A stretch of DNA of 63,452 nucleotides from Candidatus Omnitrophota bacterium (GCA_049642015.1 JBAROI010000095.1:1-63452); one strand, 5' to 3'. Shown: positions 1,008 through 52,875, counted from the first letter of the stretch. The notes: generated by a model not told the origin, from the sequence alone. Translations and numbers: made by a program.

Positions 1008-1025
1008 AAAATGGAAAAAATTTAA

Positions 1026-3936: not shown

Positions 3937-3956
3937 ACACGCTCCTGTTTTTATTT

Positions 3957-4331
3957 TTACATTTCCATCTTGATCTGCTCAGCGATCGTCATAACAGACC
4001 TTTCCAGCTGTTCCAGAACAAGAGGTTTGGTTATATACTCAACAGCATTATGCTGTTTCGCTTCTTCCGCTTTTTCAACATCTTCTACCGCAGTGACTAT
4101 TATAACTTTGGCATCCGGTTTTCGCTTGTTTATCTCTTTAAGGATCTCCATGCCTCCCATTACGGGCATCTTCAGGTCCAGAAGAATTATGTGAGGATTA
4201 ACGGAATCAATAAGACCCAGTGCCTCTTTGCCGTTATAAGCCACAAAAACTTCAAAATCTCTTTCTTTGAAGAAATTTTTCACAAAATCGCAGATATCAA
4301 CTTCATCATCCACAACTAATAATCTGATCAT
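3957..4331 (-). CDS. single-domain response regulator receiver (CheY-like)
   Basis: 124 aa. LVVDDE acidic pocket, phospho-acceptor context ILLDLKMPVMGG, VIIVTAV, ITKPL. No output domain. Confidence 0.9.
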   Translation of the reverse strand: MIRLLVVDDEVDICDFVKNFFKERDFEVFVAYNGKEALGLIDSVNPHIILLDLKMPVMGGMEILKEINKRKPDAKVIIVTAVEDVEKAEEAKQHNAVEYITKPLVLEQLERSVMTIAEQIKMEM

Positions 4332-4343
4332 AATGCCTGCCTC

Positions 4344-4721
4344 CTATTTATCTGTATTTGCAGCTTTATTTACTAAGTTTTCCAGATTTTTCAAGCTGGT
4401 TACCGGTTTTTCGATATAAGCATAAGCCCCTTCTCTTAATAGCCGCGCTTTAGTAGCCCCTGAGTCGGTATAAGCGGTTATAAATATAGTCTGAATGCTA
4501 CTATCCAGCTTTTTTATCTCGCGCAGCACCTCTTGTCCGTCAAGACCAGCCATCTTCAGATCAAGAAGCACAACATCATATTTCTTCTCTTTTAATAACT
4601 GAAGCCCTTCCGTGCCTTCCGAGGTCACGTCTATTTCATATCCTCTTGGTTCAAAATACTGTTTCAAAAAATCCGTAAAATTAACTTCATCATCGATCGA
4701 TAATATTCTTGGCTTTTTCAT
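4344..4721 (-). CDS. single-domain response regulator receiver (CheY-like)
   Basis: 125 aa. LSIDDE, VVLLDLKMAGLDG, IFITAY, IEKPV. No output domain. The start overlaps the kinase stop by 4 nt. Confidence 0.9.
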   Translation of the reverse strand: MKKPRILSIDDEVNFTDFLKQYFEPRGYEIDVTSEGTEGLQLLKEKKYDVVLLDLKMAGLDGQEVLREIKKLDSSIQTIFITAYTDSGATKARLLREGAYAYIEKPVTSLKNLENLVNKAANTDK

Positions 4722-6874
4722 CTGCTTTTAGCCTTCACACCCTCCCTTGCGGCATTAAACATCAAGTGAACGATTGTTCCCTTGCCGAGTTCGCTTTCAA
4801 TGGTTATTTCCCCGTCGTTTTTCTCGACGATCTGTTTAACAATAAAAAGACCCAATCCCGTACCTTCTCCGGGGCTTTTGGTCGTAAAGAACGGATTAAA
4901 TATTTGTTTAAGCAACTCCTCATCTATGCCCGTGCCCGTGTCTTCGATGTCAATATAAATTTTCTTTTTGTCGCTCTTCGCCCGTATAGTTATGCTTCCG
5001 CCTTCCTTGATCGCCTGGGCCCCATTCCTTATGATATTAAAGAATATCTCCTGAAGCTGTTTTGGATCAGCTAAAACACAGGGAAGATCATCCGCCATCT
5101 CTCTCAATATTGCTATATTGGACAATTTAAGGTCATGCTCTACAAGAGATATAACCTCTCCCACCTCATCCTCCACGCGAATATTGTTCTCGCTCCGTCT
5201 TTCGGCGGGCTTGGCAAAAGAAGAAAGTTTCCTTGTTATGATGGTCGCCCGGTCTGCTTCATCGATCACCTTTGACATTATGCCCTGGGCCATTTTAAGC
5301 AATTCTTGAGGTTTTTTGGTCTTGTAAAGACCTTCTTTAAGGTTCAAAAGAAACATCTCACATTGCCCGCGTATAATACTGAGTGGATTGCATATCTCAT
5401 GGTTTATCCCCGCTGAAAGAGTACCAATAACCGCCATTTTCTCCCTCTGCGCGGCTTGAGCCTGGGATTCGGATAACCTTACAAAAAGCTGGGCATTAGT
5501 TATAGCTATCGTGAGTGTGCGCGCTAAGGGTAATAAAATATCGATATCATCCTGCGTAAATTCTTCATCTGACTTCTTTTTTCCTAGAGATAATATACCA
5601 ATAACTTTTTTGCTGTGCACCAAAGGTATAATTAATTCGGAATGGAGTTCACGCAGTTTATTTTCAAAGCTTTGATCTGTGGATTTTTTTTGCCCAATGC
5701 CTTCCAGAGCAATATATTCACCGCTTTGCTCCATATATTCTACCAAATCGTCTTCGTCTGATAAAACATACTTAAGTTTTTTAAGACCGATCGATGCGAC
5801 CGTCTTAAGCTCTTTATTCTCCTCATCGTGAAGTAATATTGCAGCGCTTTCCAGTTTTATAATATTCGCCAGCTTATTTACTGTAATATCAACCAGTTCG
5901 TTAAGATTCAGCACAGTAAGCACTTCATCGGTAAACGTCTTTAAAAGCTGCTTGTAGTCATATTTCTTTTGAAAAAGATATTTATCCGTCGCAGTTCTAA
6001 GGAAACTCTCTAGAGGACGAAGCATTAAAACTATGATTAATACAGACGGCGCCATTGCAAGCCACCTATTCTGGATCACATTGGCAAATACAACAGAACC
6101 AAGATAGGCAAAACTTGCTAAAACGGCATAAGAAGCAATTAAAAGACCTGCGAAAACAAGGGTCTTCTTGATGATTACTTCTATATCCATAAGCTGATGG
6201 CGAACAATAGCGTAAGCTATTAAGATTCCATAAATGCCAACTGCATAATTTCCGCATGGAATCACATTATATGGTGGTATATTAAAAACAAGATTGAAAT
6301 TAAACCCTCCACCGGTATACCCTAACAGTGTAGCCCAAAAGAGAAAAAACACTTGCTTGCGGTAGTATGTCTCCTTTGGCAAAGTTATCATTTTTCTATA
6401 TAAACAAAATATTCCATAAATGCTAGCGGTAAAAAAGTATAATATAAACAAAGCATACAAAAAACTTGGCTTTGAAAAATATAGTCCTACACTTTTAAAT
6501 TCCGTTCCTTGAATAAAAAATGGCGTAAAAAGAGATATCCAAAAAATAGATGATAATCCGTAGCAAATTTTTATAATTTTTGCTTTCTTTTTATTTAATT
6601 TTAAGAAAGTATAATTAAAATGTATAAAAGTAGATGGAATAAAAACCGTCCCCATTAAACATAACCTATCCCAAAATGTTGCTTGCATCGCATCATTGGC
6701 CTGTATCATAGGAATTGAGAATAATGACCACCAAGAAATAGACAGTGTGTATATAGCGTAAATTCTATTTAAAAATCGTTTTGGATTTTTTACATAAACG
6801 AAAAAAGCTAAAAACAAAAGGAATAATCCTGTAAAAAGATACGATATTGTAAAATTAAGTTTAAAAAAATTCAT
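4718..6874 (-). CDS. sensor histidine kinase: polytopic N-terminal sensor + GAF + HisKA + HATPase_c
   Basis: 718 aa. About 7 N-terminal TM helices. GAF-like region ESAAILLHDEENKELK...IIPLVHSKKVIGILSLGKK. H-box LSAGINHEICNPLSII, N-box FNIIRNGAQAIKEGG, DTGTGIDEELLKQIFNPFFTTK, GTGLGLFIVKQIV. Confidence 0.9.
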   Translation of the reverse strand: MNFFKLNFTISYLFTGLFLLFLAFFVYVKNPKRFLNRIYAIYTLSISWWSLFSIPMIQANDAMQATFWDRLCLMGTVFIPSTFIHFNYTFLKLNKKKAKIIKICYGLSSIFWISLFTPFFIQGTEFKSVGLYFSKPSFLYALFILYFFTASIYGIFCLYRKMITLPKETYYRKQVFFLFWATLLGYTGGGFNFNLVFNIPPYNVIPCGNYAVGIYGILIAYAIVRHQLMDIEVIIKKTLVFAGLLIASYAVLASFAYLGSVVFANVIQNRWLAMAPSVLIIVLMLRPLESFLRTATDKYLFQKKYDYKQLLKTFTDEVLTVLNLNELVDITVNKLANIIKLESAAILLHDEENKELKTVASIGLKKLKYVLSDEDDLVEYMEQSGEYIALEGIGQKKSTDQSFENKLRELHSELIIPLVHSKKVIGILSLGKKKSDEEFTQDDIDILLPLARTLTIAITNAQLFVRLSESQAQAAQREKMAVIGTLSAGINHEICNPLSIIRGQCEMFLLNLKEGLYKTKKPQELLKMAQGIMSKVIDEADRATIITRKLSSFAKPAERRSENNIRVEDEVGEVISLVEHDLKLSNIAILREMADDLPCVLADPKQLQEIFFNIIRNGAQAIKEGGSITIRAKSDKKKIYIDIEDTGTGIDEELLKQIFNPFFTTKSPGEGTGLGLFIVKQIVEKNDGEITIESELGKGTIVHLMFNAAREGVKAKSR

Positions 6875-6889
6875 TTTAAATATCTTTCT

Positions 6890-8119
6890 TTATAAATCCT
6901 CACTTGCAATAGTTCTCTTACACAAAATATTCTCTAATTCTTCTTTGGAAATAACTTTGTCTTGGGTTTTAAAATCTCCTACAGTAATTTCATTTTCCTG
7001 GCAAAATTTCATCATTTCATGAAAATTTTCTATACTTACGTCGCCAAGCGTTGGTTCCAATGTATGCTTTTTATCTAACGCCAAAGCATATGTTTCAGCT
7101 AAACATCCAAAAACATTTTCATCCATGCCAAACCCATAATCGTAATACATATCAATGCCCTTTATCTTCAGCAATCCACCTTCTAATACTATTTTCTTTT
7201 CTGCAAGATCCGTTCGAGATATAGCTTCCGGCCTAGAATCATCAATAATAACAAAATTATCCGGGATATCGCTTTGTTTGATAATTCTATTTGCGTTAGA
7301 TGTAACACATATAGCAAGGTGATATTTTCCAAAAATATTTTCTAAATTTGTATTTTTTGTTCTTAAAATTTTCTCGATTTCTGTACCACTACCTTTTTTA
7401 TATACATTATCTATAAGCCGAATTAATCTCTTTTCGTTTATATCTATTACACCAATTTTTTTAACTTTGTTAATCAAAACCCGTACAAGATTTGTCCCCA
7501 TTTTGCCTGCGCCTACAATAGCAACTTTTAAATCTGAGGTTTTAAGTCCCATCAAATGTGATATTTTTTCTGTCATAAGATATAGCGAAACTAACGTTCC
7601 TGTATGACCATTCGTGATGATAATATCTCTCTTTTTTGCAGCCTCTTTCAGGGCAAGACCCCTTCTTGTGACAATGGGCCACCACGCTCCTAGCCCCATA
7701 TACGTTTTTCCATGCGTAATTTTTCCTACAAATTTTATTGTCCTAAAATACTCCCTTAGTGTCTTCCTGCGGCTTTTTATTAAAAATTTTGGTAAATATA
7801 AGCTTGAAATAACCACTCCCTCTAATCCTGTTGGGCTTTTTATCGTAGCTATTACAAAGGGGGGTATTTTCTTAATTAGCTTTACTGCTTTTGTTTTGGG
7901 CAAAAACTTTCTTAAAATAGACAAAAATGGTAAAGCAATAAAAATATCTTCTGATCTACGAGGGTGTACTAAGAAAACAAATTTAGGAATAACTCCATAT
8001 AGTGTTCGTAAAACAAAATATGGTAAATAGGGAATGGGTAAATAGAATATTAGATAATCTCTCAAATATTGAAAGAAAGAAGAGATAGGCCTTTTTACCC
8101 ACTTCGTTCTATATATCAT
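6890..8119 (-). CDS. Rossmann-fold NAD(P)-binding oxidoreductase, acyl-ACP reductase / COG5322-like (putative)
   Basis: 409 aa. Dinucleotide-binding loop KVAIVGAGKMGTNLV. It resembles cyanobacterial acyl-ACP reductase in the blocks TNGHTGT (cf. TTGNTHT) and VFGCLAETYALAL (cf. MFACFAEAMLLEF). It has a hydrophobic N-terminal extension of about 60 aa. The functional call is from remembered similarity only. Confidence 0.45.
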   Translation of the reverse strand: MIYRTKWVKRPISSFFQYLRDYLIFYLPIPYLPYFVLRTLYGVIPKFVFLVHPRRSEDIFIALPFLSILRKFLPKTKAVKLIKKIPPFVIATIKSPTGLEGVVISSLYLPKFLIKSRRKTLREYFRTIKFVGKITHGKTYMGLGAWWPIVTRRGLALKEAAKKRDIIITNGHTGTLVSLYLMTEKISHLMGLKTSDLKVAIVGAGKMGTNLVRVLINKVKKIGVIDINEKRLIRLIDNVYKKGSGTEIEKILRTKNTNLENIFGKYHLAICVTSNANRIIKQSDIPDNFVIIDDSRPEAISRTDLAEKKIVLEGGLLKIKGIDMYYDYGFGMDENVFGCLAETYALALDKKHTLEPTLGDVSIENFHEMMKFCQENEITVGDFKTQDKVISKEELENILCKRTIASEDL

Positions 8120-8140
8120 TATATTGCCTACTTTCGCACA

Positions 8141-8323
8141 TTATTTATTTTCTCCCTTCTCTTGTTTTTCGATCCATTTGTCGATTGTTTCTTTTTTGAA
8201 GCGCCATTTTGAGCCAACTTTGAAGGCCGGGATCTTGCCCTCCTGGGCATGCTTATAGATAGTGACTTCTTTCATCTTCAAATATTCAGCCAGTTCTTTC
8301 AGGGTCATCATTGAACTCGCCAT
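8141..8323 (-). CDS. excisionase-family (MerR-like) helix-turn-helix DNA-binding protein
   Basis: MTLKELAEYLKMKEVTIYKHAQEGKIPAFKVGSKWRFKKETIDKWI is the typical excisionase-type HTH. I prefer the ATG at 8323 (MASSMM...), preceded by GAGGAG 7 nt upstream, over the listed start at 8377. Confidence 0.75.
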   Translation of the reverse strand: MASSMMTLKELAEYLKMKEVTIYKHAQEGKIPAFKVGSKWRFKKETIDKWIEKQEKGENK

Positions 8324-33033: not shown

Positions 33034-34990
<1,957 letters not shown>

Positions 34991-35155: not shown

Positions 35156-38100
35156 TTATGCGGCTTCGATGACCTGCCTCATGGTCGCGTACCTATCCAT
35201 CCGCCTGTCGTGGTCATACCGTTCAATGTTCGGGAGGAGTTTGAATATTAAGGGGCTGTTTGGCGCCGCGGATTCCGACCTCATTTCCGCGATATTTATC
35301 GCATCCAGCTCTTCTTTGGTAAAGCCGCTTAAGCGCCCTTTACTGATATAGCGGGCCAGGGTAATTGTCACTATCTCGGCAAGAGGATAATAATGGATCT
35401 TGCGGAATTCCTCTGTTCTCTGGATATATGCTAACTGGACATTATCCTTATTTCTGGCCCACGAAAGCTCGTCTTCAGCGCTCTCCTCGGCGAACACGAA
35501 GATCACGGCGTCCTCTTTCCTAAAGCCTTTTTCCTTCAGGCGCTCATCGATCGCTTCTGAAAGAGTTTGTTTGCTTCCCGGTATGACGATCTCCAGATTA
35601 TTTAGAAGTTTCTTGTAATTGTCGTCCCCTTTGAGGTCTTCCAGTATTCTGAAAATATTTACTGCCTCGTCGCTATCTATGCTCCTGTCAAAAGTCAGGA
35701 AGATCTTTTTCTTCAACGGGTCGATCTTTGTCCTCGAAAGCGTGCCGGAGACGACCATTTCCACAAGGTTTTTCGCCAGTTCATCCGGATCACTGACATC
35801 ACGCAGGAGGAATTTCAGGTCAGCTTCGGGCTTTTCTCCGGTATCGGGCATTTTCCTTATATTAATGGGAACGCTTGCTAATGCCTGTTCGAATTTTTCA
35901 TTATCTCTTAAGGCGTGCCCTGTAAACAGGCAAACCGGATCATACCCTTTGAGGTCAACGGCCTCGAGCTCTTCGCCTGCGGCTTCAACCTGGTATTGAT
36001 ACTGATCAACGATACCTGCCATATCTCTAAATCGAATTCTCGTATCAGCATCTTTGAAACAGATTCGGAATTTCTTATCGTGCCTCTGGCGTAAAATGCT
36101 ATCTTTCCCGGTGCGCCTGTACCAGGCGCTCGGTTCGGAGCCTTCTTCCGGCTCAAAGCCGTACTCTTTGCCAAGAAAATCAAGCGTAAGGGGATTGGAA
36201 AAACCCGGATGAATGCGCTTAACATCCGGGTACATGGTAAAGAACATATTCAAAAGCGGCCGGAGCAGGCCCTTTTCCTGCAGGTCCTCACTTATTAAAA
36301 TGCCCTTTAAGCCGTGCCGATCCTCATCGCCCTCGATCGGCACACTGTAGATCAACATATCCGGCGGCGTTCCTTTTGCCCTGGATATGCCCACTTGATT
36401 TAAAATTATCCCCTTCCTGCCATCCGACATCCGCTTAAACGGGGAAATTTCAAATGAATAATAAGCACCCTTCCGGGAAATTAAAACTCTGTCACCGCTA
36501 ACGGTTACTTCATCTTCCGGGAATCTAGCGCTCTCTCTATCTCCAGGCGAAGCAGCAAGCGCCTCTTCGAGGGGTGATTCTTTGACGGACGGTTCCTCGA
36601 CGGGTGGTTTTTTGACAGGCGGTTCCTTGGCAGGCGCTTCACCGCGCGTACCCTCTGTCAATTCTTTAGTCGCTTCGACCAGTTCTCTTCTTTTTTCTTC
36701 GTCCTTCTTCTCCCTGACCACTACTTCAACCGTCGCCCACAATATGGCCGTATCAGAACCGCTGTAATAAACATCAATAGTCAATATATATCCGCCTTTT
36801 TCACGGTCGGGCCTCCAGCCGCTCAATATCGCGCCGCAGCTGTATATAACGCCCGGTATCCAGAGATCATGTTCATTTTCCAGTTCGTATGGTTGGCCCT
36901 TCTCCGGCTTCAAGATCGGTTCGCTGATAAATTTTTTCCTGGGATCCTTATTGTCGGTCAAAAGCAGCCTTAAATCATAGTACTTATCCTCCCCGTCCAT
37001 GGCCGCGGCATGAACGAGCGTGAGATCGAAGCCATTTAATTCAATAAACTCCTCCGTGGGCACATTGGCTACATAAGCTGAAGGCCCCATCCAATGAAAG
37101 GGCGGAAGAGCCGTTAACTTATAAGGCCCGACGGTTTTCCATGTCCCGTACATGTCCCCTGAAGAATCAATCTCCGCTATCCACATCTGAGAATTGTGAT
37201 TCATTGAAGGCCGGAATAGGGCATACCATTTTCCGTTAGCAGGGTTACCAAAAGGTACAAAATTTTTGATATTCCCGGGCATATCAGTGATCAATTTCTT
37301 CAGTGGCTTCCATTCCCAATTAACTTCCGCGCTCTTTCCCTTTTCCAGTAGCTGAACGTTTTTCAAGAACTTATGTGAATCATGTTTTGTAACTGCGGAA
37401 AAGTATTGTCCGTCTCTTCTTACCGCCGTCAGGAAAACATAGACATATCTATTCTTTTCCATTTTGCCGTTAACTTCCTCCCATATTTCCCTCTCAATAG
37501 CGCGCGCGTCCTCAAGAGCGATGATCTCAGAATCTCTCTCGATCTTTGACATCACGCTTTGCCAATGTTCCACATCATCTCCTGTCGCATGAAGATAGTT
37601 GTACTGGGCATCCAGGTATTCCTTAGAACCGACATCTGAAAGCTGCGAACAAAGGCTTTCATCCTCGGGCATAAGCATCTTTTCGTCGAGCTCTTTAATT
37701 TCTCTTTTTTTACCCCCTTCTTCATCGCGCTCTTCGCCTTCTTTTGGGTCGCTCTTATCGTGGAGAAGGAGCCCTATCCAGGACTTTCGTAGCACGTCCT
37801 TTTTGCCGGGAATATTGATAGCGATCCTGTTAAAAAGCAGGCGCCTGCCGGCTAGAGCCAGAACTCCGGCGTTTAAGTTGTATTCCAGGCTTTTATCTCT
37901 CGGTTTCATCAAGGGGCCGTTCCTCTCCACTTTTCTAATTTCCATCTCTATCGGCAACTCGCCACGAAATTCTTCAAACATGGGATCCTTAAATTTTATC
38001 TTGTCCGGGGGAAACTCAGGGGGATACTTACCCTGGGGAGAAAAAGGCCTTATCATGCGGTCCCTTAATATCTTATCCTCTTCCATCAAATACTGTTTCT

Positions 38101-41100
38101 GATAGAGACGGAGAGCGTAATGTGCGCGCCACGCATCCTTCCATTTCCGTCCGACTTTATCATCATCGGGTATTCCGTATCTTTTCATTTTTTCCTTTAG
38201 ATATTCCTCGATCGCCTCTTCGCCGATCTTTCCCTCATATACAAGTTTAGATATAATATATTCAAGAAAGACCGACCTTCCTTCCCTGCTTTCCCTTATT
38301 TGTTTATCTATTAACGCGTGCGCCAGTTCATGAAGTTTCGCCATTTTACTGGCAATTTTATCATCCTTCTCTAATCGACTTGATGCTTCGTCTTTTTTAT
38401 TCGTACCCCCGAACGGCTTTAAAACGGCAACAAGGTTCCTCGCCCCTATCCCCTCTATGCCGTAATCGTTGGGCTCTATGAGAAAAGCTTCTCCTTTAAA
38501 GACCGAATTGATAAACTCATTAAGCTGTACATTGATCCCTTCGTGCGAAGTTTCATAAAAATTATCGAATATATCCGGTGATGCTCTTTTAACTCTTAAT
38601 TTTATCTCTATCGGTTTTCCTTCCGGGTGCGTGATATCCACGGCTTGAAAAATCAAAACTCCCTCGCTGCTTCCTTCACTATCGGGCACAAATGTTATAT
38701 TGGAGAGGATCTTCCACTTGCCGATAAGGCCGGTAAGGAATGATTTGACGCACGGCGCTTTCGAAATAGCTTGTTGAATGGCGGAAAGAATAGCTTGGTT
38801 GTCCAGAATTTCTTTTGTAATGTCGAATTCTTTCAGTATTGTTTTGCGAAAAACACCATATACTACTTCTGCTTCTTTCACAACAAATGCCTTTAGGGGC
38901 TGGCCGATTATGCTTCCGGTTTTAGGGTCATATTTGTGCCAGACAAGTATTATCCCGAAGTTCGGCACATTGACAAGGGTGCCAAGAACAAAAACATCTT
39001 CTCCCTTTTTGGCCAATTTCTTTCCGATGTAATGGCTTGTTTTTGACGCCCTCCCGCTCTTGTCCAGCTTGCTGACAACATAACTTGTCCCGTCCTCCCG
39101 CGGCTTGATCCATTCTTCTCCTAATTGCCATCTTTTGATATCCGCCCATCCCAGGGTGCGGTCTTTTGCAATTCCCGCATTCAAATTATCGCCAATATGG
39201 TAGTTCACTGTAATATGATCGATCACTTTGCCTTTATCCTCTACAATTCCCACAATACCGTGATTGGGGTCTTCGACAAACCGCAAGGTCATACCCGCCT
39301 TCTTTTTAAAATATGTGCTACTGGAAAGGCCCGGCGTCTTCTCTTTTCCGGTAATAACGTAGCTTTCTGCACTTGCCAGGATGATATCGACCCATTCAGA
39401 TGTAAATACGTCCCTGAGAAAATACCGCAAGGCTTGTCTAAAAGCCTCGACTTTGAGTTCTTCCGGTGGCGGGGGAATAGTGACTTCCGGTGTTCGCTCA
39501 TCGGCTTTCGGCGTTTTTTCCCGACCCTCAATATCCACATATGGCGTAGAATCATTTATAGCGGTTACGGTGTTAAGGTCAAATTCCACAACCTTCAATA
39601 GTGCTTTATGAAGAACTTTTCCGGCGAAATTTTTACGCCACACAGGCGACATGGTCTTTCTTACAACATCACGATCGATTTTATTCCTGAAATAAGCCCT
39701 TGTCGCGGTATCAACTTCATCTTCAGGGTCTATCAGAGCCATTGCTACGCACTCCGTCAGATCTATGGCAAAATCCCGGGAAGGCAGATGAAGTCCGGGT
39801 TCAGGGAGATCTACTTCGACAAGTTTGGTATCCGGCTCGACCCCGGCCCTTAGGAATACGCCGTTTCCATTTACAAATATCCTTTTCACTTCTCGATTGT
39901 AGGCATCTTTTATTGTTTCACCCTCCGAAAGATCTTCAGGAAGCCACCAGTCTATCCCGCCTTCAAATTTCTCGAATGGTTTTTTCAGCTGAGATGCCGG
40001 AGTCAATACAACCACGTCAATATCCGAATGTTTCTTTAGATCCTTATCCTTTTTTCGGCGGTTATATAAAGAAGCCGCCGTGCTGCCAATGATAATACCT
40101 ACCGCGCCGTGCTCTTTCAATATCCTGTCAGCTTCTTTTAACCCCTCGAGACCTACTTTGGCCTCAGGTGGAACGGGGTCTTCTTTTTCGATCCTGATTG
40201 TAATCTTCATCAGCTGTTTAAGGGTCATCTTTAACTTCACATTGAGTTCTTCTATCATCTCCAGGCTCAATCGAGGACCTCCCATACCCATGCCCATCAT
40301 ACCAAGGAAGCTAAACACTATGATGCCTACCATAATCAACGGAACAATCACCCAGGAAGCCCCTATCCCCTGTCCCAGCTGCAACCCCACCTCGGCAGCT
40401 TGAACTAGCCGCGGAGTAAGAAGACCGGCAAGCAGGATCCCCAGGATCGTCCTGCCGGACAATAGCTTTTGTAAAGGACCCGGGACATGCATGCTGAAAG
40501 TGGTCCACCCGTTTTCTATCGAATAGGCCAGACTCCCGCCTGCCTTCTCGGCGGTCTCCCTAGCTATGGCTATGCCCCTTCCCGTGCAGGAAAAGGCCCG
40601 GGTAGCAACGGCATCCCCGTCAAAACGTCCTTCCTCGACCAAGGATACTATGTCAGGAGACGATACATAGCTTTCCTTTATTCTGGCAAGGTGATACTGG
40701 TCAGGTACTGAATCGTTACTGACGGCGATCTTGATGTTTTGATCGTTTATTTCCCACTGTATTCTGAGCTTCGTTATCTTATATCCCTCTTCAAGGTACT
40801 GTCTTACTATTTTATATTTTTCTTCACCCTTCATATCTTTTCTTGCTATAAAGCTCTCGACGCTTCCGTATTTATCCGTAAAACGCATGAATCCTTTTGC
40901 CTTCATCGCATTCATCATGATCTCATGGAAAAACGAATCAAGGGCCACTTCCGCATCTTCACTATACCCGTGCTTCGAAAGAAGTGATCCCAGCGCCACT
41001 CGTAACCCAAATATCGTCTTATACTTTCCGCCGGAAAGATCCGCAAAAGAGACCGCCCCCGAATCAGTAATTTCTATAACCGGCTCCCCGGGAACATCTT

Positions 41101-44100
41101 CCTGTTCCGCAGAAGGCGGGCCCCTGGTTTCCGGGACACTTTCTTCAAAGAGATATCCCGCTGAACCGAAGAATCTGAATATTGAAAGAAGCTGCTTGGG
41201 TATTCTAATTTTATGTTTTTCGAGGATGTTAAAGAGCTTTAGTATCTTATTCACGGCGCTGCCCTTTGACTTGATGACTCCGGTGTCAATTTCACTCTTT
41301 AACTCTTCAGATACGGGGCTGAATGTCCGCACAGCAGAAACAATGGTACTCAAATCGTTATTTTTTACGCCATTAATGATATCGCGCAGATTTCTCTGAT
41401 TCTCATCATTGATCTCACTGCAGGAGCCAAGGTCAATAAAGACTATCGTCTTTCCGTCATCCTTCAGGAAGATATTTCCGCTATGGGGGTCGGAGTGGTA
41501 AAAACCGTCCACGAATATCTGGCGCAGGAGCTCATTGGCTATCGCCCTCCTTATTTCTACCGGGATGTATTCCATGTCGCTCAGCTTTACGCCGTCCACG
41601 AATTCCTCGATCATGATGGAATTGTTACCTGCATCGATTGCTTGCGGCACCTCGAACCTATATGAACCGGATTGGGGCAGGTAATTCCATTTGCCCGTAA
41701 AATACATCGCTACCGCTTTTACAAACCTCTTCAAACCTCTCCACGGATGGAACCTTGTCCTGAGATTCCTCGCAAGCCTCTTCTGGTTTTTAGCCTCGCG
41801 GTTAAAGTCCATTTCTTCGTTGATCATCTCTTCGATGCGCTCAAACATATCATCCGGCAGGCTTATATCCCGCTGCGCAAGATCATCCCGGATATCCCCA
41901 AGGGCCCTCCTGAAGAAAGCCAGGTCGCTCTCTATCTTCTTTTGCGCTTCCGGCCTTTTGACCTTGATAACACCCTTCCTGCCGTTCTTCAACAAAGCTT
42001 TATAAACGGATTTGATCGACGCGCTTCCTACTTCTTCGCCCAGGGATCTGAACTTTTTATAAAAACCGCCGAAGAACTTCTTTATGGCGTCAAAGACAAC
42101 TCCCTTATTGAGGGGCTTTGCGCTATCCTTGAGGCCTTGCAGGGCCTTCTTTATGGGGCCCTCGTCTATCAGGCCGGAACTGACAAGAAACTGGCCCAGC
42201 TTTACACCCACCACTCCCAGTGATTCCAGAAAGATGCGTATGACTGCCGCTTCTTTTTCCTCTCCGGAAAGACCTTCGGCCCGGGAAAGCTGGGACAATT
42301 TCTTGATCATCGCAAGGATAACCTCTTCTCTTCTGAGCTCGTCCGTAGTGGTATCGGTATCTCTTTTCCTGAATACGCTGTCGTAAATAGTTTTAAAGAT
42401 GCTGCCGGTTTTCCCCGGGAGAACAGCATCAAAGAGCGCATCAAGAAATTCCCTTGAGGCATTATCGTCAGCAAGGATCCCCTTCTCCCCATACAAGAAG
42501 CTAACGAAAAAGTCGTCAAGCTCGCTTGTGCCAACGCCCTTATAGTGCTTTCCTTCTTTGCCGGAGAACCTATCCTTTAAAGAATCAAGTTTGACTCTCA
42601 TCTCATACTCAAAATAGACCATGTTGTATGGTTTTTCATCCCGCAGGCCCATGAACCACAAAAGTAAATCTTTTTTATCCGAGGGATTCATGGCCTTGAT
42701 CGCTTCCCTTATCGCGTCTTCATAAAACGTAAACTGGGATTGCGTTTTTTTCCTGAGATTGTCCGGGTGCTGAAGCATGAGACTGTTTATAAGATCTCCG
42801 TCTTCCGGCGTCAGAGCACAAGACTGCACATTAAGAAGGATATCGTCACGGTTAAAGCAAAGATAAGGAAAATAATGTGTTACGCGTTCAAGCTCTCCTT
42901 CAAGCGCCTCAAACTTCTCCGGGGATTCTTCTCTTTCCATCTCGAGCGCTCTAAGGGCGAACTTCTCCCTTATATGCGGGTTGTAAAATAAAGGAAGGGC
43001 TTCATCTATGTCCCGGATGGAGGGCTCGCCCTTTTCCAAAACCTCCCTGAGGTGGTTGTCTCTCGTATTAGACGGCCTCGCAAGTAATCCGGAAATAAGC
43101 CTTATCTTGTCTTTCGTTTCTATCGGCTTAGTAAGCATTTCCGCGAGAATGCCTGACGCTAATTCAGGTACCATTAGATCGAATTGCGCCAGTATCCCGC
43201 CGGGCTCCGCCCGGTACAGGCCAGGGTAAGACGCGAATTCTCCGTCATGCGCGGCGATAATGCTAGCTTCAGCGATCCTGGCATCATCTTTGGTGCTTTT
43301 GTAGGCTACATTTGCCATAACACCCAGGTTCTCCTCTTCTATCTTTTTGTCTTTTGAAAGAAGCGGAATAATTCTTTGCGTCAAAAGTTCCAGGAACTGT
43401 TGTTTTTTTGACTCGTCAAGAGAGGCGATCTTCCCTGAAATACTTGCCGCGTCATAAATGGCATCATCTTCGATCCGGACCCCCCATTCATCCCTTAACT
43501 TTTTCTCGACGAGTAGGCAATAGAGGATGAAATTTCTGTATGGTGAAGGAGGAACGATGCGCGCAAGATCGTTAAGGATCTCATCAAAACTTCTCTGCGA
43601 ATCGCGTATTATGCCGACAAAGCCTCTCACCTCATCTTCTGACACATGCCGTGAACGGTTAAAACGGGTTACGTCTACCGAGCTCGTTGGGTCTCCAAGG
43701 TCTCTCTGTCGGGAAACTTCCCCTGGGAAGTATTCCCGCGGAAAAAATACTTCCAGAATAGGACTGTCTACCTCGGACACACCCCCGGGTCCGTAATAAC
43801 CATCGAATTCTCTGGCAGGCATTTTTTTTCCGGTAATACGAATCGAAAATACTTGGATCTGTAAAGGTAAGATATAAAAATTCCAAAGCTCGTCTTTTTC
43901 CTTATTCTTATGTCTTGCTGCATAATAATGGAGAGGTACCTCTTGGACGATCTTGTAAAGCACGCTTTTAGGGTCTGACCCAAAGCGTTTAATATGCTCA
44001 TAAAGAACCAAAAGATCCCGTTCGCTCAAATCCTCTTCAAGAACAATCCTGCGGAATATCCTTTCATCGGCTATTCCGCCCTTTGAATAAAAATATATTA

Positions 44101-47100
44101 ATAGTTTTACATCCGGATGGACGGAAGGATCAAGATGAATACCCTGGCGTGCAAGCTTTTCTTCGATCAAAGAAATAGGGATCCTTTTTACTCTTTTGAA
44201 AACGCTGCGTGCTATATCTCCTCCCGTGGTAAATTCATGAGTTTCCACATCGTAAAGGTCTGTTCTTTCAAGGAGCCAGTCAACAACTTCCATCTGCTTT
44301 TCAGGAGAAAATGAAAAAAGTGGCGTTTCATCTTCGTCTACCAGTCCGATAATAGGAAGCAAGTGCTCCCACACGTTGACGCCTGAACGCTTAAACAGGT
44401 ATTCAGCATTGCCAAGCCTGCTAAATATCGTCTCTGGATTGATATCTCCAAACCATTCAGTGAACGCGTGTTCGATGCTCCCTGGAAAATCTTTGCGTGA
44501 ATGGAAAAAATAACTAAAAGCACTAAGCCAAAAACGGTCTTTTAACGCACTTTTTTCGCCTCTGTCTTCGCATAACCATCCCCAGACCAAAGAGCTTATT
44601 TCCGGACCTGCCTCTATTAGAAGATCAAACATAGCATGCACAACAGGAGAATGCTGATATGAATCGAGATCGAGCACGGTTATCCTGTCAGCAAGAGATA
44701 ATAGCTCCCTTACGTCTTCAGGTGTGAGGTTATTTACGATTTCGAGTTCACCTAAAATGCCTCCCAGGATGCTCTGTTGCGCTTGTAGAATCGCACTGGG
44801 CCCCTCGTTTCCTACAAAACTGTCCCAGGAGACGGCATCCATGACTGCCATCTGCTTTTTCCACTTCTCAAGCCCTTCTACCGCGGACCTAACGTCTTTG
44901 ATCCTTCCCGGATCCTGTTTGACCATTTCCGTCATTTTTTCTTCCAAAGTATAAGGTATAACCCCTAGTAAAAACTTATTCATGAGCCCTTGGAAGAATG
45001 ATTTAAGACGAGGCTCCATCTCATAAGGAAGGCGCGCCTTAAGCGCGGAAAGTATATTATCAAGGCCGATCCTTTCGGCAATGGCCCGCTCTGCTTCACG
45101 GTTCAAGTTGCCTTCCATGGTACCTAATTCAAAGAATATCCGGAAAAGTTCTATCATACTCTTATCTTCCCCCGCAACGCGGGAGGCCTGCTCTTCAAAA
45201 GCCGACCGAATTCGTCTCTGCGCCTCTTCGTCGTGCGCAAGTGGACGTTCCTCAGGGCTTCTCTCTTCTGTCGGAAAAACATACATTATGAGAAAATCAA
45301 GCGCGAGAAACAGCTTTTCCGGCGAATCGGACCTTCTTATAAGTTCCAGTGCGGTATCAATGTCCTGTAATCTTAAATTAGGATGAGGATATTGCGGATA
45401 AACCCAATCTTTGAACTCTCTGTTCCTTGTCTTGAGATTTACCGCTTCTTTGAACTCTTCGCTGAATTCTGTCGGATCATTGTAGTAAGAAGGCCAGTGA
45501 AGACCGTTAACTTGTTTTTCCAGCTTCCTTATCCTTTCATCGGTCAACGGGTGAGAAAGCATGGTGAGGATCATTTGAAGCGCTGACTGTCCTCTTTCTC
45601 TTTCACGAAAGGCCTTCATCATGTCAAGCGCGCCCCTTACTGTATAACCCGCTTTATCTATTGTCGAAAGTGACTCTATATCCGCCTGGTATTCGTCGGC
45701 ATGCCGCCCTTGTAATTTTTGTATAGCGTCCCACGAATGGAAATCCCTTGGGAACGTGAGCTCTTTTCCTTCAAAAATGTCGTCAACAAACTGGTCAACA
45801 TGCGCAAGCTCATGCGCTAATATGTGCGCAAAACTGTCAACCGTCCCTCCGTTATCTACCACGAACCTGATGAGTCCCATGTTGATGCATACCGTGTTTG
45901 AATAAGGCAGGACAAATCCCCGCGGATAAGAATAACCGTCATCCAGTATCACGAGGTTAAAATCATCCGGATCGTATCCCCTGGCTTTTAAGGCCCTGTC
46001 AAAAACCTCCCGCGTATCGCTGTAAAACGCCTTGAATCGTTCATCTGATGGGTCAACGGTCCCCATGGTAGAATCCCAGTTCTCAATAAGCTGACCGTAA
46101 AAATCATTATTCGCAAGAATAGTCTCAAGCTGTTTTTCCAGGAGCTTCACCTGATCAGGATTCTGCCTCTTCCATTCATCCAGTTTATCGAGCGGTATGT
46201 TTTTACGCGAAGCAACCATCCGCCAGAGGATATCCTCATCAGCAAGCTTGTAACGATATTCTTCCGCGCCGGTTTGTTTCCTGGCGGTCCACGCGCGGTA
46301 GATCCTGTAAGCAAGGTACGCGAAAAGAAGCCCGCCCACGACTATAGCGAAAGTGGTCCACGAAAAATCCAATGTCTGCTCGCCGAGAAAGAGAGGCATG
46401 GCAAAAAATGCGGAGCTGTCTTTTTTGGGCGGAGTTGAGAGCTCTCCCGCCTTAAGGGCTAAATGGATACTGTTGAAAAGTCTGACTGCGGGAATGTCCT
46501 CCTCTTCGATCTTGCCTGTCTCACAAAAATTACGGGGGATATATGCGACTCCTCTTTCGCTATAATTATGTCCTTCGGAAAAATTGATCCACACATGTCC
46601 GGGGTCGTTCCCCAGTTTATAAATATCTACGCTACGATACTCAGGAAATCGGCTTTGGACCCGCTCCGCGGTAACGGACCCGTAATAAGCAATAACAAAG
46701 TTGTCCCTTTCAAGGCCCAGCATCTTTACGAGTCCTTCAACGGCGTTAAAAGTGTCTTCGCTGTCAACTTTAAGGATCAATTTCGCGCCCTTACCCTTAA
46801 GAAACCACTTCAAATCGATGTGCCCGCTATCGTCAATGTAATCTAAGATCTCCTCTATTGGGCCGCTATATAGATCAAGAATTGAGCAAAAGATGAAAAA
46901 GTAGTACGGATTAAAAACAAACAGCTTTCGCAAGGCATCATGATCAATGGAAGTATCTTTCAGAGCATTTAAAGACCGCTGAACGCGCATTTTTGTTCCT
47001 GAAAGCACGTCCACGGCGCGCCACACGTCCCAGGGTTTCTTCAAAATCGCCTCTTTTAAAACATCGATTCCGATAAGCTCGGAATTGGCAAGTATCCTTA

Positions 47101-50100
47101 TAAACTGTTTATGCCCGGAAAGTCTGGAGATCAAAAGATCAAAGTCGCCTCTCTTGCCCTTGAAAAACGGTTCAAGTTCATTCTTTAATGCTTCAAAGGC
47201 CGCGTCACCGGACCTGAAGTGTTTTTGTCTCTTTCTTTTTTCGGGTGAAGGTTTTGCTTTTTCGCGGTCTTTCGTTTTTTCCTCATTCAACACTTGCCTG
47301 AATATTTTTATCGCCGGTGCCGGACTTACGTTCATCGTCCTGGCCATGGTTTCAATTACACCTTTTGCCTCTTCGATGTCCTTACGAAAAGCGTCTTTCC
47401 TTTGTTTCTCCGGCAAGTCAAGCCTGAATGTATCGTAATCAAAAAGTGTGAGCGGATTGTGATTATGCGGAATGTTAAAAACGCCGCCGTACTGATTGAA
47501 CGTGCAGCCATTAAACTCATTATGGAGGATATGCAGGAACAGGCCATACCTTGCCGCAGCGCCTTTAAGAACTTCCTGGGCCATTTCTTCATACGGAACT
47601 GCTTTTCCATCTTTCGTCGCTTTCCGGACATCACCGTTGCTGTCATAATCGACTTTGTACCCGTAATATTCAAAAAAGGACCTCAGGTCAAGCTTTCCAT
47701 ATACTTCGCTCATCCTCTCGTTGCAGGGAACATCATACACGTATATAACGGGCTCCCTTTCTTCCGGATGTCCTTTTTTGGGAATACCTATAAAGTCCAG
47801 ATAATCTTCAGTCGGGATCAGTTTCACCTGGGGCGGCATTTCAAGTTCTTTGGGGACTCTTCTGGCCGTGGGCAATTTTTTGGCCCCTTTCTTTTCTTTA
47901 TCGGCCACAATTGCAGGAAAAGCCAGGACATCCGCCTCTACTACCGGCCTCCTTATCATGTCTATCCGGGCTCCGTGCTGTTTTGCAAAAGTCATAGCGG
48001 GGTTACCGGCTTTTTCAAGGCGTTCGAACGCTTCTCTGAGTACAACATCAACTTCTATGGAGGCTTCCGATCTGGGTAGTCCCCCATGCAGGAGATGAAC
48101 GCCACTGCCCTTTCTCACTCCCACCAGGACCCCGGACTGATTAGTTGCCATGGAAGCTCCTGTTCCTTTATATACAACCATATGTCCCTCCGATAAGTAA
48201 TAATGATGGGCCCTATTGTGCTCATCGCTGAACGAAAAGGACAAGGGGTTTTTCATGGGGAAGTAATACCTTTTCCCTATTTTCTTTATGCGTCCGGCGC
48301 GCACTTCTCTTTCGAGAAGCTCCCTTGAAATAATACTTATGCTCTTTCCACTTGTCTCTTCGTCCTTCTTTGTGTTTATTTCTACGGGAACATAAAAATA
48401 GTTCCCCAGCATCCTGAGTTCCGCGACCATTCTTTTCATTTCATCTTTGGTTCTTTCTTTAGAGGTCACGGCAGGAATATACTGGCCCAGTATCGAAGAA
48501 AATGACAATTGATACATCTCAAGGGTAGGAGCAAGCTCAAGGGCTTTTCTGAATTCTCCGGCTGATCCTACGGCCTTTGCGGTCTCCTGGAGGGCCGTCC
48601 CGACGCTGTTAACATTAAATGCTTTTTGTTCCGCAAAAATGGCCGTTTGGAATTCTATCGCCGCTTCAAGGGCATCCGGAAGATCTCTTTTCGATCTTGA
48701 CGCTTTTATTGCCGCGGGAGCGGCGTATCTCAGGTAAAAGTGATGAGCTGGATTGACGCTATGAGGAGTATTGGTCTGTGGGATCATTTTGAGCAATCTC
48801 TGGAGAACCATCTCGAGCTTGTCAATCGACTTTGCAGCCTCGGCTGCATGTATAAGGCCGTCATCCAAAAAACGGCCTATTTCTAATTCACCGCGGATCG
48901 CTTCCAGATCGATCAGAAATTTCTTAACAACTTCGATAGCTTTTAAAAAATTCTCTTCGGATTTTGATGTCACTGTTGCCGCCGGAACACCACATTTGAG
49001 AAAGATCTCCGGATTCACACCTTCTTTGCAGAGTGAATCAGCGGCCTCCAAGGCCGCTATAAGATCTTTTTCAGTTCTTACACATGTACTGCCCCAGAAA
49101 ACCCCGCGCTCAAGAACCCCCTCACCGGCAAAAATCCTTTCCGAAACTGTTATCACGAGCTTTTCCATAGACTCGAGGACTTTTATGAATCCTTCTTCCG
49201 ACTTGATCGCATTTATTGCCGCCGGGAAAACACGCTGAATGGTAATATCAGAAATGTTAGCCCCTGCCTTTTCATAAATGTTAGAAGTAAATGTCCGGAT
49301 GGCGTCGAGAAGTCTTTCGAGGCCTTCCCTTGACCGGGAGAACATTGCCGCCTGTATAATGATAAAATCGAACTGGGAAGGAACTTCTTTTCCGGCAAAA
49401 AGAGACGCTTTCATCTCTTCTATTTTTGGCCTGAAAAGGGCCACCCTTTCTTCATCCGGCATATCTTCCCATTTTCTTTCCTCAGCCGCCGCAGAAGCCC
49501 TTTTCCTCTCTTTTAGAAATACAGTAGCACGTGTACCTATCACCCCTTTACGGTCGTCTTCAATGCTTTTCTTTTCGTATCCCCACTCCCCTTTGATCAG
49601 TTTTATTCCTTGGTCACGGATATTCTCCTGATCGCCATTCACTGCCGCTACCATGCGCTTATCCGCGTCACCGGGCTTTGCCGCGTCAAAAACATCGAGC
49701 CTTTCCGCCTTTCCCTTGCCATCTAACTTTATGTGCATAAAAACAGGGAGAGAAAGATCAAACTTATTCCCGTGCTCTAAAGCATTTTTAAGCAGCTCTT
49801 TGATGGGAAAGACAATATCATGAGTATCTTTACTGCTGAATTTCTTACTTAAGTCTCCGGCAAGAAATTCGAGTTGTTTTCTTATCTTTTTGTACGCGTT
49901 GTCAATATCCACAAAGTTATCGAATCTCAAAGAGATGAGTTTGCCCGACTCTATCGCTGCTATCACATCCTTAACAAGGCCCCAGCTCCCCTTCGTATCC
50001 AGCGGAACCTTGAATTCGGTTAATTCGCTCGCACCCGTTTCCTCCATCATACGTTTTTTAAGCAGGTCCGGCCGGGAGCCGTATTCAACATCCCTAATGA

Positions 50101-52122: not shown

Positions 52123-52875
52123 TCAATGCCCGGCATTGAAGGTTAGGAGGGTTAGTCCGGTGATTACAAGGTTGGGGTGGACTTTCTTTATATGATGAGA
52201 ATATTTGGCGACGAGTTTCGCGTCGCCACCCGTAGCAACGATCTTTAAAGACCTGCCGTATTTCTTTTTCAGCTTCTCCGCGAGGCCGTCGCACATTGAC
52301 GCATAACCGTAAAGTACGCCGTTGTTCATGCTGCCGCGCGTATCGCGTCCTACCAGGCCTTTGGCGGGTTTAATGTCTACTTTCGGGAGAAGGGCCGCTT
52401 CCTGGATGAGTGAACCAAGGGCTAAACGCAGGCCGGGAAATATCAAGCCGCCCTCGTACTCCCCTTTTCTGTTAACGCAATCCAGGGTCACGGCCGTTCC
52501 GAAATCGATAGAAACGACCGGTGAACCAAAAAGTTCTTTTGCGGCAAACGCGGCGACAAGGCGGTCCTGCCCGACTTCCCGCGGCTTTTTGTACTTATTC
52601 TTTATCGGCACCTTTATGTTTTTTCCGACTACAAGGATGCGGTGCTTCGGCAGGATCATCTTTAGGCTTCTTTTTAAAATGCGCAAAAATTCGGGAACGA
52701 CGCTCACTATTATGATCTTATCGATAGCGCGGATGTTCCTTCCAAGAAGGCGCCTCAGGGCTTTCGACGAAACGGTTTTGCGGGAAGTGCGTATAAAATA
52801 CCGCTTCACGATCCTCTTTCCCTGAGCGATCGCTAAAGACGTATTCGTGTTTCCTATATCTATCAGTAGATCCAT
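52123..52875 (-). CDS. coaX: type III pantothenate kinase
   Basis: 250 aa. LLIDIGNTNTSLAI, SIDFGTAVT, GGDAKL. Confidence 0.9.
   Translation of the reverse strand: MDLLIDIGNTNTSLAIAQGKRIVKRYFIRTSRKTVSSKALRRLLGRNIRAIDKIIIVSVVPEFLRILKRSLKMILPKHRILVVGKNIKVPIKNKYKKPREVGQDRLVAAFAAKELFGSPVVSIDFGTAVTLDCVNRKGEYEGGLIFPGLRLALGSLIQEAALLPKVDIKPAKGLVGRDTRGSMNNGVLYGYASMCDGLAEKLKKKYGRSLKIVATGGDAKLVAKYSHHIKKVHPNLVITGLTLLTFNAGH

Follow-up and report, generated by a model that had tools for sequence, protein, structure and literature searches.

Does a UbiB kinase that adjoins a GHKL ATPase within one giant bacterial protein form a working pair with it, or do the two domains only happen to share a gene? This question is raised by a stretch of 63,452 nucleotides from Candidatus Omnitrophota bacterium (GCA_049642015.1 JBAROI010000095.1:1-63452), referred to here at its full length as the window, which carries on its minus strand a giant open reading frame (ORF) of 5,599 aa (Table 1). 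An earlier note on this DNA, made from the sequence alone, had described at 40490-42240 of the window, corresponding to aa ~3239-3822 of the encoded protein (hereafter the giant), a complete UbiB/ABC1 atypical kinase fused to a second GHKL ATPase module, and had suggested that such a tandem inside a protease- and glycosidase-bearing giant protein was undescribed. We find that the giant is a membrane-anchored protein with two separate evolutionary modules, a UbiB/ABC1 domain and a GHKL-fold cassette. What the earlier note missed is that the conserved partner of the kinase is an M48 protease lying ~1,400 aa upstream, and that the kinase itself belongs to a clade which is specific to large proteins. 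This M48-UbiB supermodule is a more interesting and better-supported result than the UbiB-GHKL tandem.

The UbiB/ABC1 domain of the giant

By its sequence the UbiB domain of the giant is complete, with its catalytic residues intact. The Pfam model PF03109 (ABC1) matched it with 133.1 bits where the cutoff is 22.9 (E 1.2e-38), aligning over positions 2-241 of the 244 in the model, and its matches in the PDB were to UbiB-family structures only (5yjz, 7cy2, COQ8A/B). The motifs on which the earlier note had relied are present and in the order it gave, namely KLGQ at aa 3252, GSASI at 3310, MDFNREA at 3382, HSDPHSGN at 3487, IDLG at 3507 and IPKQLLSIFRFF at 3585 in the kinase, and EIMMNAMKA at 3678 and GRGIAIARETAEKAGGSL at 3792 in the GHKL-like segment; a further string, quoted as VKVKRP, was inexact and reads VIKVKRP. 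We examined residue conservation in an alignment of 217 ABC1 domains, in which the key residues are invariant or nearly so both in the clade of 83 domains that holds the giant (described below) and in canonical UbiBs. The KxGQ motif (KLGQ, aa 3252-3255) retains K3252, found in 81 of the 83 clade members, and Q3255, found in all 83, while the Gly-rich loop is replaced by an Ala-rich one, GSASIK, with A3312-S3313 conserved. The catalytic set comprises the beta3 lysine K3331, the alphaC glutamate E3387, the catalytic D3489, N3494 and the D[FL]G aspartate D3508; the clade shows no variation at K3331, D3489 and D3508 and keeps E3387 in 79/83 and N3494 in 82/83 of its members, and all of these align to the equivalent residues of 5yjz and 7cy2. 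Since both the PF03109 match and the catalytic Lys and Asp are retained, the loss that had been named as refuting a complete UbiB domain was not observed, and the identification holds.

Completeness does not make the domain a canonical UbiB. The NCBIfam equivalog models TIGR01982 and PRK04750 scored the giant at 151.2 bits against a cutoff of 487.55 and at 93.3 against 667, respectively, and PF03109 gave 228-248 bits for canonical UbiBs versus ~133-135 for the domain of the giant. Owing to these scores, far under the equivalog cutoffs and lower for PF03109, we regard the domain as distinct from canonical UbiB and, as far as profile scores can tell, not an equivalog of the UbiB of the quinone pathway. 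In precomputed annotation of canonical UbiBs, PF03109 is accompanied by PF27536.

The M48-UbiB supermodule

A search with giant aa 2760-3900 in a library of 1.84 billion entries returned 8,109 matching representatives at E<=1e-3, 71 of them at E<=1e-30, and the best 148 were compared with the giant by BLAST. Between its M48 region and its kinase the giant has a long region with no Pfam match, yet the kinase-proximal ~450 aa of it (giant aa ~2780-3235) proved to be a conserved N-terminal extension of the kinase, as this extension plus ABC1 is common to 112 of the 148 best representatives. The M48 region (giant aa ~1900-2230) is also shared by 67 of the 148. In the giant, PF01435 (M48) matched this region with 29.3 bits against a cutoff of 20.3, over part of the model only, and the region contains HELAH at aa 2048-2052 (nt 45800-45814), with RHADEYQAD downstream, which we take to resemble the third-ligand motif of M48; the description of the giant as protease-bearing was thus right.

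The conserved unit, as delimited from these alignments, spans ~1,700 aa (giant aa ~1890-3615) and consists of a transmembrane (TM) anchor, the M48 domain, a long helical region, the extension and the UbiB domain. This supermodule occurs in at least 67 representative large proteins of 1,200-7,085 aa, distributed over Omnitrophota, Elusimicrobiota and the candidate phyla radiation (CPR)/Patescibacteria (Peregrinibacteria, Uhrbacteria, Magasanikbacteria). Pfam detected PF01435 and PF03109 together in L008 (2,929 aa), L009 (3,558 aa, Omnitrophota), L010 (1,874 aa, Elusimicrobiota) and L012 (2,585 aa), and in members in which both could be located the HExxH motif is separated from the kinase catalytic loop by ~1,400-1,600 aa. 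The best relative of the kinase module in the genome collection, L007, comes from an Omnitrophota metagenome-assembled genome (MAG; JAFGLX010000143.1, 1-13871) and shows 37% identity over giant aa 2358-3615.

Two forms of the family deserve description in their own right. Some CPR proteins are compact, of ~1,800-1,900 aa, and are essentially an N-terminal M48 plus a C-terminal UbiB; P0210 (Peregrinibacteria), P0234 (Uhrbacteria, annotated 'M48 family metalloprotease') and P0203 are among them. At the other extreme is L007, a further mosaic protein of great length from the family of the giant: its 13.9 kb are all in one frame, cut at both ends, and encode at least 4,623 aa with the UbiB module near the start.

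The phylogenetic placement that had been proposed as a check was made with a neighbour-joining tree. In it a single clade of 83, separate from the 132 canonical UbiBs of ~550 aa, takes in every one of the 72 ABC1 domains that belong to proteins of at least 1,000 aa. This large-protein clade bears a signature, ASIK, with a lysine (K3315) where the sampled canonical UbiBs have A, G or S. It had also been stated that homologues in which the segment is an independent gene would count against the fusion, and this is borne out in part by P0001, a stand-alone gene of 869 aa made up of the N-terminal extension and ABC1, which aligns to giant aa 2801-3604.

In public databases the M48-UbiB proteins are inconsistently labelled as 'AarF/UbiB family protein', 'ubiquinone biosynthesis protein' or 'M48 family metalloprotease'. 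Our literature searches turned up neither an account of a fusion between M48 and UbiB nor one of UbiB within giant proteins. The giant-gene preprints and their supplements, searched for ABC1, PF03109 and M48, yielded nothing, and neither did a search for 'ABC1' with 'Peptidase_M48'. UbiB is unmentioned in the main texts of 10.1101/2023.11.21.568195, 10.64898/2026.06.07.730766 and PMC10066038, as are ABC1 and M48 in those of the first two.

Adjacency of the kinase and the GHKL-like cassette

Among the best 148 representatives, the kinase-bearing relatives cease to resemble the giant at aa ~3604-3672, and in nearly all cases by ~3639, shortly after the C-lobe of the kinase has ended; nine GTDB species-genome loci behave likewise. 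The exception, P0133, is a 100%-identical fragment of the gene of the giant itself. L007 does possess a genuine HATPase_c domain (E 3e-17), located ~3,000 aa downstream of its UbiB module and unrelated to the cassette. One further protein, P0195, was considered as a second kinase-GHKL tandem, its BLAST alignment reaching aa 3726, and was rejected as the multiple alignment contains neither an N box nor a G2 box.

The cassette has only two non-self homologues among the matched representatives, P0152 (64% identity) and P0182 (44%). P0152 is the syntenic orthologue of the giant, encoded downstream of a 73%-identical coaX on a contig of MAG GCA_049645405.1 (L016, 1165-8281), and it shares giant aa 6-625 (47%), 3827-4406 (74%) and 4409-4636 (32%). 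Its cassette is inserted cleanly between the equivalents of giant aa 4406 and 4409, and M48 and UbiB are both absent from the 2,372 aa available, where roughly giant aa 625-3620 are missing. In P0182, a fragment, TM segments and, beyond them, an M48-like region come after the cassette. As these homologues do not adjoin a kinase, the ~205-aa cassette behaves as a shuffled accessory domain. The UbiB-GHKL adjacency is, on this comparison of sequences, a lineage-specific juxtaposition in a mosaic gene and not the meaningful tandem that had been proposed, and the mosaicism of the giant relative to P0152 points to shuffling of domain cassettes within one locus.

Fold and nucleotide site of the cassette

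The segment behind the kinase had been called a second GHKL ATPase module; the GHKL part of this name is supported by profiles and by fold prediction, but the ATPase part is unproven, there being no DxGxG. The proposed check with HATPase_c (PF02518) remained sub-threshold, with 19.5-21.9 bits where 26.4 are required (E 1.4e-3 to 2.5e-4), with the match restricted to the C-terminal part of the model, but it was consistent in that all three cassette homologues (the giant, P0152 and P0182) match HATPase_c independently below threshold, the best with E 7.4e-5. By comparison, this model gives 89-102 bits for the three genuine histidine kinases of the window, which also have HisKA. In the PDB, a profile of the three cassette sequences matched solely histidine-kinase CA domains (best E 5.8e-5, 8dx0), and the weak PDB matches, 11 of 11 from the single sequence and 8 of 8 from the profile, are all to histidine-kinase CA domains at the same F/G2 region. 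AlphaFold with the three-sequence alignment produced a model (aa 3621-3835) with a pLDDT of 73.7 and a pTM of 0.74, for which the top Foldseek matches were RsbW, SpoIIAB, UsfX, histidine-kinase CA domains and PDK/BCKDK; its GHKL matches had a probability of 1.00 and a target-normalised TM score of 0.59-0.76. On the strength of the profile matches, the three independent HATPase_c matches and the AlphaFold/Foldseek results we accept that the cassette has a predicted Bergerat (GHKL) fold, closest in its model to the anti-sigma Ser-kinases RsbW and SpoIIAB.

The invariant blocks of the three-sequence alignment are FF.E...NA.KAK, which holds the N box; W-E-I-N...K....S-N-[DN]-S-x-P-D-x-Y-H..RI.ESY; [ST]G.GI.IA, the G2 box; and AGG.L......GWTTF.M..P. 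The N box, E3678-IMM-N3682-A, is invariant in the three homologues and was assigned by its position in a helix of the model. The G2 box, [ST]G[RI]GI[AS]IA (TGRGIAIA in the giant), aligns to GTGLGLAIAK of WalK, VanS and SrrB, and is followed by a C-terminal beta-hairpin, GWTTFSMHVP, which, like the N box, also aligns to histidine-kinase CA domains. On the other hand, all three lack a G1 box, whether written as D.G.G or as [DE].G.[GA], in the stretch from the N box to G2, and the model strand expected to end in the G1 Asp ends instead in an invariant asparagine, Asn3746 (IAVS-N3746), within S-N-[DN]-S-x-P-D. In Hsp90 and GyrB an Asp-to-Asn change at the adenine-binding position abolishes ATP binding, and in view of the Asn at this position in the model it is plausible that the cassette is a pseudo-ATPase. 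No HisKA/DHp family match was found in giant aa 3186-3852 at E<=1.

Some attempts on the cassette led nowhere. AlphaFold on the single sequence of giant aa 3616-3832 gave a pLDDT of 44, was unusable and has been superseded by the alignment-based model; hhalign of the cassette profile against SpoIIAB and against the HATPase_c of L007 returned a probability of 0.3. A DesK-style register, with G1 at VEEGRF or ESYVSSP, is not favoured since the strand of the model ends at IAVSN and QYHLARIKESY forms a helix. When the GHKL segment was searched by itself in a word index of proteins, no match was found, but this index evidently lacks long proteins, as it missed relatives of at least 1,357 aa (P0134, P0136) that were found exhaustively, and the giant itself; its 'no homologue' results are therefore unreliable for domains of long proteins.

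The giant contains another, 'first' GHKL-like region, at aa ~660-830 (window ~49400-50000, minus strand), which is marked by ELLKNALEHG and is predicted to be extracytoplasmic. It had no Pfam match at E<=0.01, and P0249, another UbiB-bearing large protein, carries a 26%-identical counterpart of it at aa 3605-3752.

Membrane topology

A hydropathy scan placed TM segments at giant aa 9-27, 1864-1885, 3836-3854 and 3866-3887, in agreement with the TM at ~1866 and the hairpin at ~3838 noted earlier. Basic residues occur before the first segment, after the second, where YRIYRAWTARK follows, and on both sides of the hairpin. Following the positive-inside reading of these flanks, we infer that aa 28-1863 would lie outside the cell, and that aa 1886-3835, comprising M48, extension, UbiB and cassette, would be cytoplasmic, where ATP is available; the earlier proposal that the kinase and the GHKL-like segment share one compartment with M48 agrees with this reading.

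The giant ORF and its locus

The giant ORF is indeed real, as had been stated, being free of stops along its whole length. It is flanked by groEL (33034-34686) and coaX (52123-52875), and from 52123 onward coaX is succeeded by birA, uvrB, nadC and valS, with riboflavin genes beyond; its surroundings are those of an ordinary bacterial chromosome. ValRS proteins with at least 90% identity bear the name 'Candidatus Omnitrophota bacterium'. No quinone genes were found within the 63-kb window. L002 is 100% identical to the giant over aa 1-3277, and a contig of another MAG, L018, spans giant aa 2712-4254 with one mismatch, a single-nucleotide polymorphism (SNP), in 4,765 nt. Since the latter contig spans both junctions, the kinase, the GHKL-like segment and the TM hairpin are truly contiguous in the species of the window.

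Table 1. Features of the window, with positions in the giant where they apply
Feature	Window position	Strand	Basis or remark
Giant ORF, 5,599 aa	35156..51955	minus	Single stop-free frame; same locus in other assemblies
TM helix, giant aa 1864-1885	46301..46366	minus	Hydropathy; start of the conserved supermodule
M48-type zinc metalloprotease region, giant aa ~1950-2190	45386..46108	minus	PF01435, HExxH, homologues
Long Pfam-free region, giant aa 2191-3235	42251..45385	minus	No Pfam match
UbiB/ABC1 atypical kinase-like domain, giant aa 3236-3604	41144..42250	minus	PF03109, PDB matches, residue conservation
Predicted GHKL-fold (SpoIIAB/RsbW-like) cassette, giant aa 3624-3829, ~205 aa	40469..41086	minus	Profile, fold model, motifs
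TM hairpin, giant aa 3836-3854 and 3866-3887	40295..40450	minus	Hydropathy; conserved in P0152
HisKA+HATPase_c histidine kinases	15-1007, 1026-2627, 4718-6874		Two of three with a 7TM sensor
GAF-HD(-GYP-type) protein	2614-3936		

PDB sequence searches with the first 1,866 aa and with the last 1,699 aa of the giant had zero matches. The giant had also been described as glycosidase-bearing, which finds weak support in an NCBIfam match of GH130 type (beta-mannobiose phosphorylase) at aa ~4895-5076 (window ~36728-37272, minus strand; E 5e-7, 28.9 bits, far under the cutoff) but none from Pfam and PDB sequence searches of this region, both of which were negative. In the C-terminal third a second HExxH occurs (KLHELAHAL, aa 4542-4546, window ~38315-38332, minus strand), which is kept as HELLHA in P0152; judged by this motif it may be a second metallopeptidase-like site, and it had no Pfam match. 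The left end of the window (1-8200) has a GC content of 0.32-0.41, versus ~0.45-0.52 elsewhere, and encodes a signalling cluster of three canonical HisKA+HATPase_c histidine kinases plus a GAF-HD protein; this low-GC end may be an acquired island.

Proposed function and alternative explanations

We consider it probable that the giant combines an M48-UbiB supermodule with a separate GHKL-like cassette, and that, on the cytoplasmic side of the membrane, its ATP-driven UbiB domain acts jointly with M48. The supermodule would be held on this side between the TM helix at aa 1864-1885 and the hairpin at aa 3836-3887. By analogy with COQ8 and UbiB, in which cardiolipin-containing membranes and phenols stimulate a conserved ATPase activity and the KxGQ domain makes contact with the membrane (10.1101/149823), engagement of the membrane would lead the UbiB domain to hydrolyse ATP or to act as a kinase on a lipid or a protein. 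Coupling to the fused M48 would take one of two forms: the UbiB activity would draw out or present a lipid or protein substrate embedded in the membrane, or it would regulate or gate the protease; ABC1K kinases and an M48 protease (PGM48, sll1280) are known to co-reside, as separate proteins, in the proteomes of plastoglobules and cyanoglobules (PMC8956952, PMC12223511). Overall, the supermodule would serve remodelling or quality control of the membrane or envelope and not quinone synthesis. The cassette would be a lineage-specific, optional accessory, most likely regulatory or partner-binding, with its nucleotide binding altered or lost.

A wider view, which we hold to be doubtful but worth stating, is that the supermodule is a widely conserved machine and a 'Rosetta-stone' fusion, revealing that UbiB ATPases work physically with M48 membrane proteases and have a quinone-independent core function. 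Such a machine, belonging to bacteria that are ultra-small and for the most part do not respire (CPR, Omnitrophota, Elusimicrobiota), would extract or present membrane-embedded substrates by means of ATP for proteolysis or remodelling; the same UbiB-M48 pairing is seen unfused in plastoglobules and cyanoglobules.

Several points weigh against the function that we propose. About half of the long representatives have no BLAST match to the M48 region of the giant, some of these being fragments, and L014, L015 and P0001 are without M48, so M48 may not be obligatory. The neighbour-joining tree carries no support values, and the topology comes from a simple hydropathy scan. The G1-box call was made from a medium-confidence model on a three-sequence alignment, in which the lid region of the cassette (model residues 142-169) has a pLDDT below 50. 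Furthermore, what suggests a coupling between M48 and UbiB is solely their conserved fusion and the co-localisation of unrelated plastid homologues, and the predicted activity of the large-protein clade is read from sequence.

That UbiB and GHKL instead constitute a functional two-ATPase tandem and a novel unit, one regulating or phosphorylating the other, seems to us unlikely. The two domains do adjoin through a ~20-aa Pro/Glu-rich linker in one predicted compartment, the independent MAG contig L018 confirms their continuity, and the position of the cassette ~220 aa upstream of an M48-like region in P0182 may mean that it associates loosely with the supermodule. But among the 150 best-scoring of the 8,109 representatives and the nine genome loci the tandem is found in the window's own species only; the other kinase homologues diverge from the giant right past the kinase, P0152 holds its cassette elsewhere with no kinase in the sequence available, and the cassette lacks the DxGxG box. 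It is improbable, too, that the domain is a canonical UbiB/COQ8 regulator or assembly factor of quinone biosynthesis which is simply embedded in a large protein. It retains all the UbiB signature motifs, and some Omnitrophota classes encode partial ubiquinone or menaquinone pathways (PMC10066038); on the other side stand the scores far under the UbiB equivalog cutoffs, the clade separate from the ~550-aa UbiBs, the long extension, and usually also the protease, to which it is fused in every case, the want of quinone genes in the window, and the close relatives in CPR lineages (Peregrinibacteria, Uhrbacteria). CPR lineages are not generally known to have respiratory chains or quinone synthesis.

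Quite improbable, in our judgement, is that the GHKL-like segment is not GHKL at all and that its N-box- and G2-like strings are chance matches in lineage-specific filler. Such a view could appeal to the scores under the Pfam gathering threshold, the empty word-indexed search, the pLDDT of the single-sequence model, the uninformative hhalign runs against single GHKL sequences and the missing DxGxG; it has to contend with weak PDB matches that are, without exception, to histidine-kinase CA domains at the same F/G2 region, with three homologues that match HATPase_c independently, and with an alignment-based model whose pTM and best Foldseek matches speak for GHKL. We regard it as highly improbable that metagenome assembly created the giant ORF, or brought its modules together, as a chimera. 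The gene is mosaic relative to its syntenic orthologue and MAG contigs are short, but the frame stays open for 16.8 kb, L002 is identical over aa 1-3277, L018, from a different MAG, covers both junctions with its one SNP, and many independent proteins share the order and spacing of M48 and UbiB.

Significance

The biochemical job of the UbiB family, which includes the human-disease proteins COQ8A/B, the plant ABC1Ks and bacterial UbiB, is still unsettled. An M48-UbiB fusion in lineages that mostly lack a quinone pathway leads to a testable hypothesis of a quinone-independent function of UbiB, and the compact ~1,800-aa CPR proteins (P0210, P0234) are natural constructs for testing M48-UbiB coupling; the interest would be higher still if this coupling proves functional. 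The labels 'AarF/UbiB family protein' and 'ubiquinone biosynthesis protein' on large M48-UbiB proteins are misleading. More generally, adjacent domains in mosaic giants should not be taken for functional tandems unless their adjacency is shown to be conserved.

Comparison with known systems

With the UbiB/ABC1/ADCK family (E. coli UbiB, COQ8A/ADCK3, plant ABC1K, Mycobacterium MABP-1) the giant shares a full PF03109 match, the KxGQ motif, the Ala-rich loop, the beta3 Lys, the alphaC Glu, the HxDxHxxN loop and the D[FL]G Asp, along with a predicted tethering to the membrane. It differs in that its domain resides inside a protein of 5,599 aa, behind a conserved extension of ~450 aa and usually with M48 upstream, and in that it belongs to a separate clade, marked by K3315 of ASIK, and occurs in lineages not known for quinone synthesis.

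The cassette is akin to SpoIIAB, RsbW, UsfX and histidine-kinase CA domains, which are the best fold matches to its predicted structure, in keeping the N box, G2 and the beta-hairpin, and to SpoIIAB and RsbW also in being without a DHp/HisKA domain. Unlike SpoIIAB, RsbW and UsfX it has no G1 box and carries a helical insert of ~40 aa after the N-box helix, and Pfam found no STAS, PP2C or sigma partner in the giant.

The closest parallel to the supermodule is offered by ABC1K and PGM48/sll1280 of plastoglobules and cyanoglobules, where members of the same two families occupy one lipid-associated compartment and are linked no further than by co-residence and co-variation (PMC8956952, PMC12223511). 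There they are separate polypeptides on plastid or cyanobacterial lipid droplets, whereas in the giant they are covalently fused, ~1,400 aa apart, and the fusion is found in non-photosynthetic, ultra-small bacteria.

Finally, like other giant or very long proteins of Omnitrophota, the giant is a mosaic, multi-enzyme protein with few annotated domains and TM anchors, although its 16.8 kb falls below the >20 kb threshold for a 'giant ORF' and below the 'Archaeovorin' class of at least 30,000 aa. Giant proteins of Omnitrophota are reported to have HATPase_c as one of their commonest domains (10.1101/2023.11.21.568195; 10.64898/2026.06.07.730766), so a GHKL domain in the giant is not surprising, and the cytoplasmic topology predicted here agrees with the TM-anchored, mostly cytoplasmic reading of long Omnitrophota proteins which is favoured by the 2026 preprint (10.64898/2026.06.07.730766).

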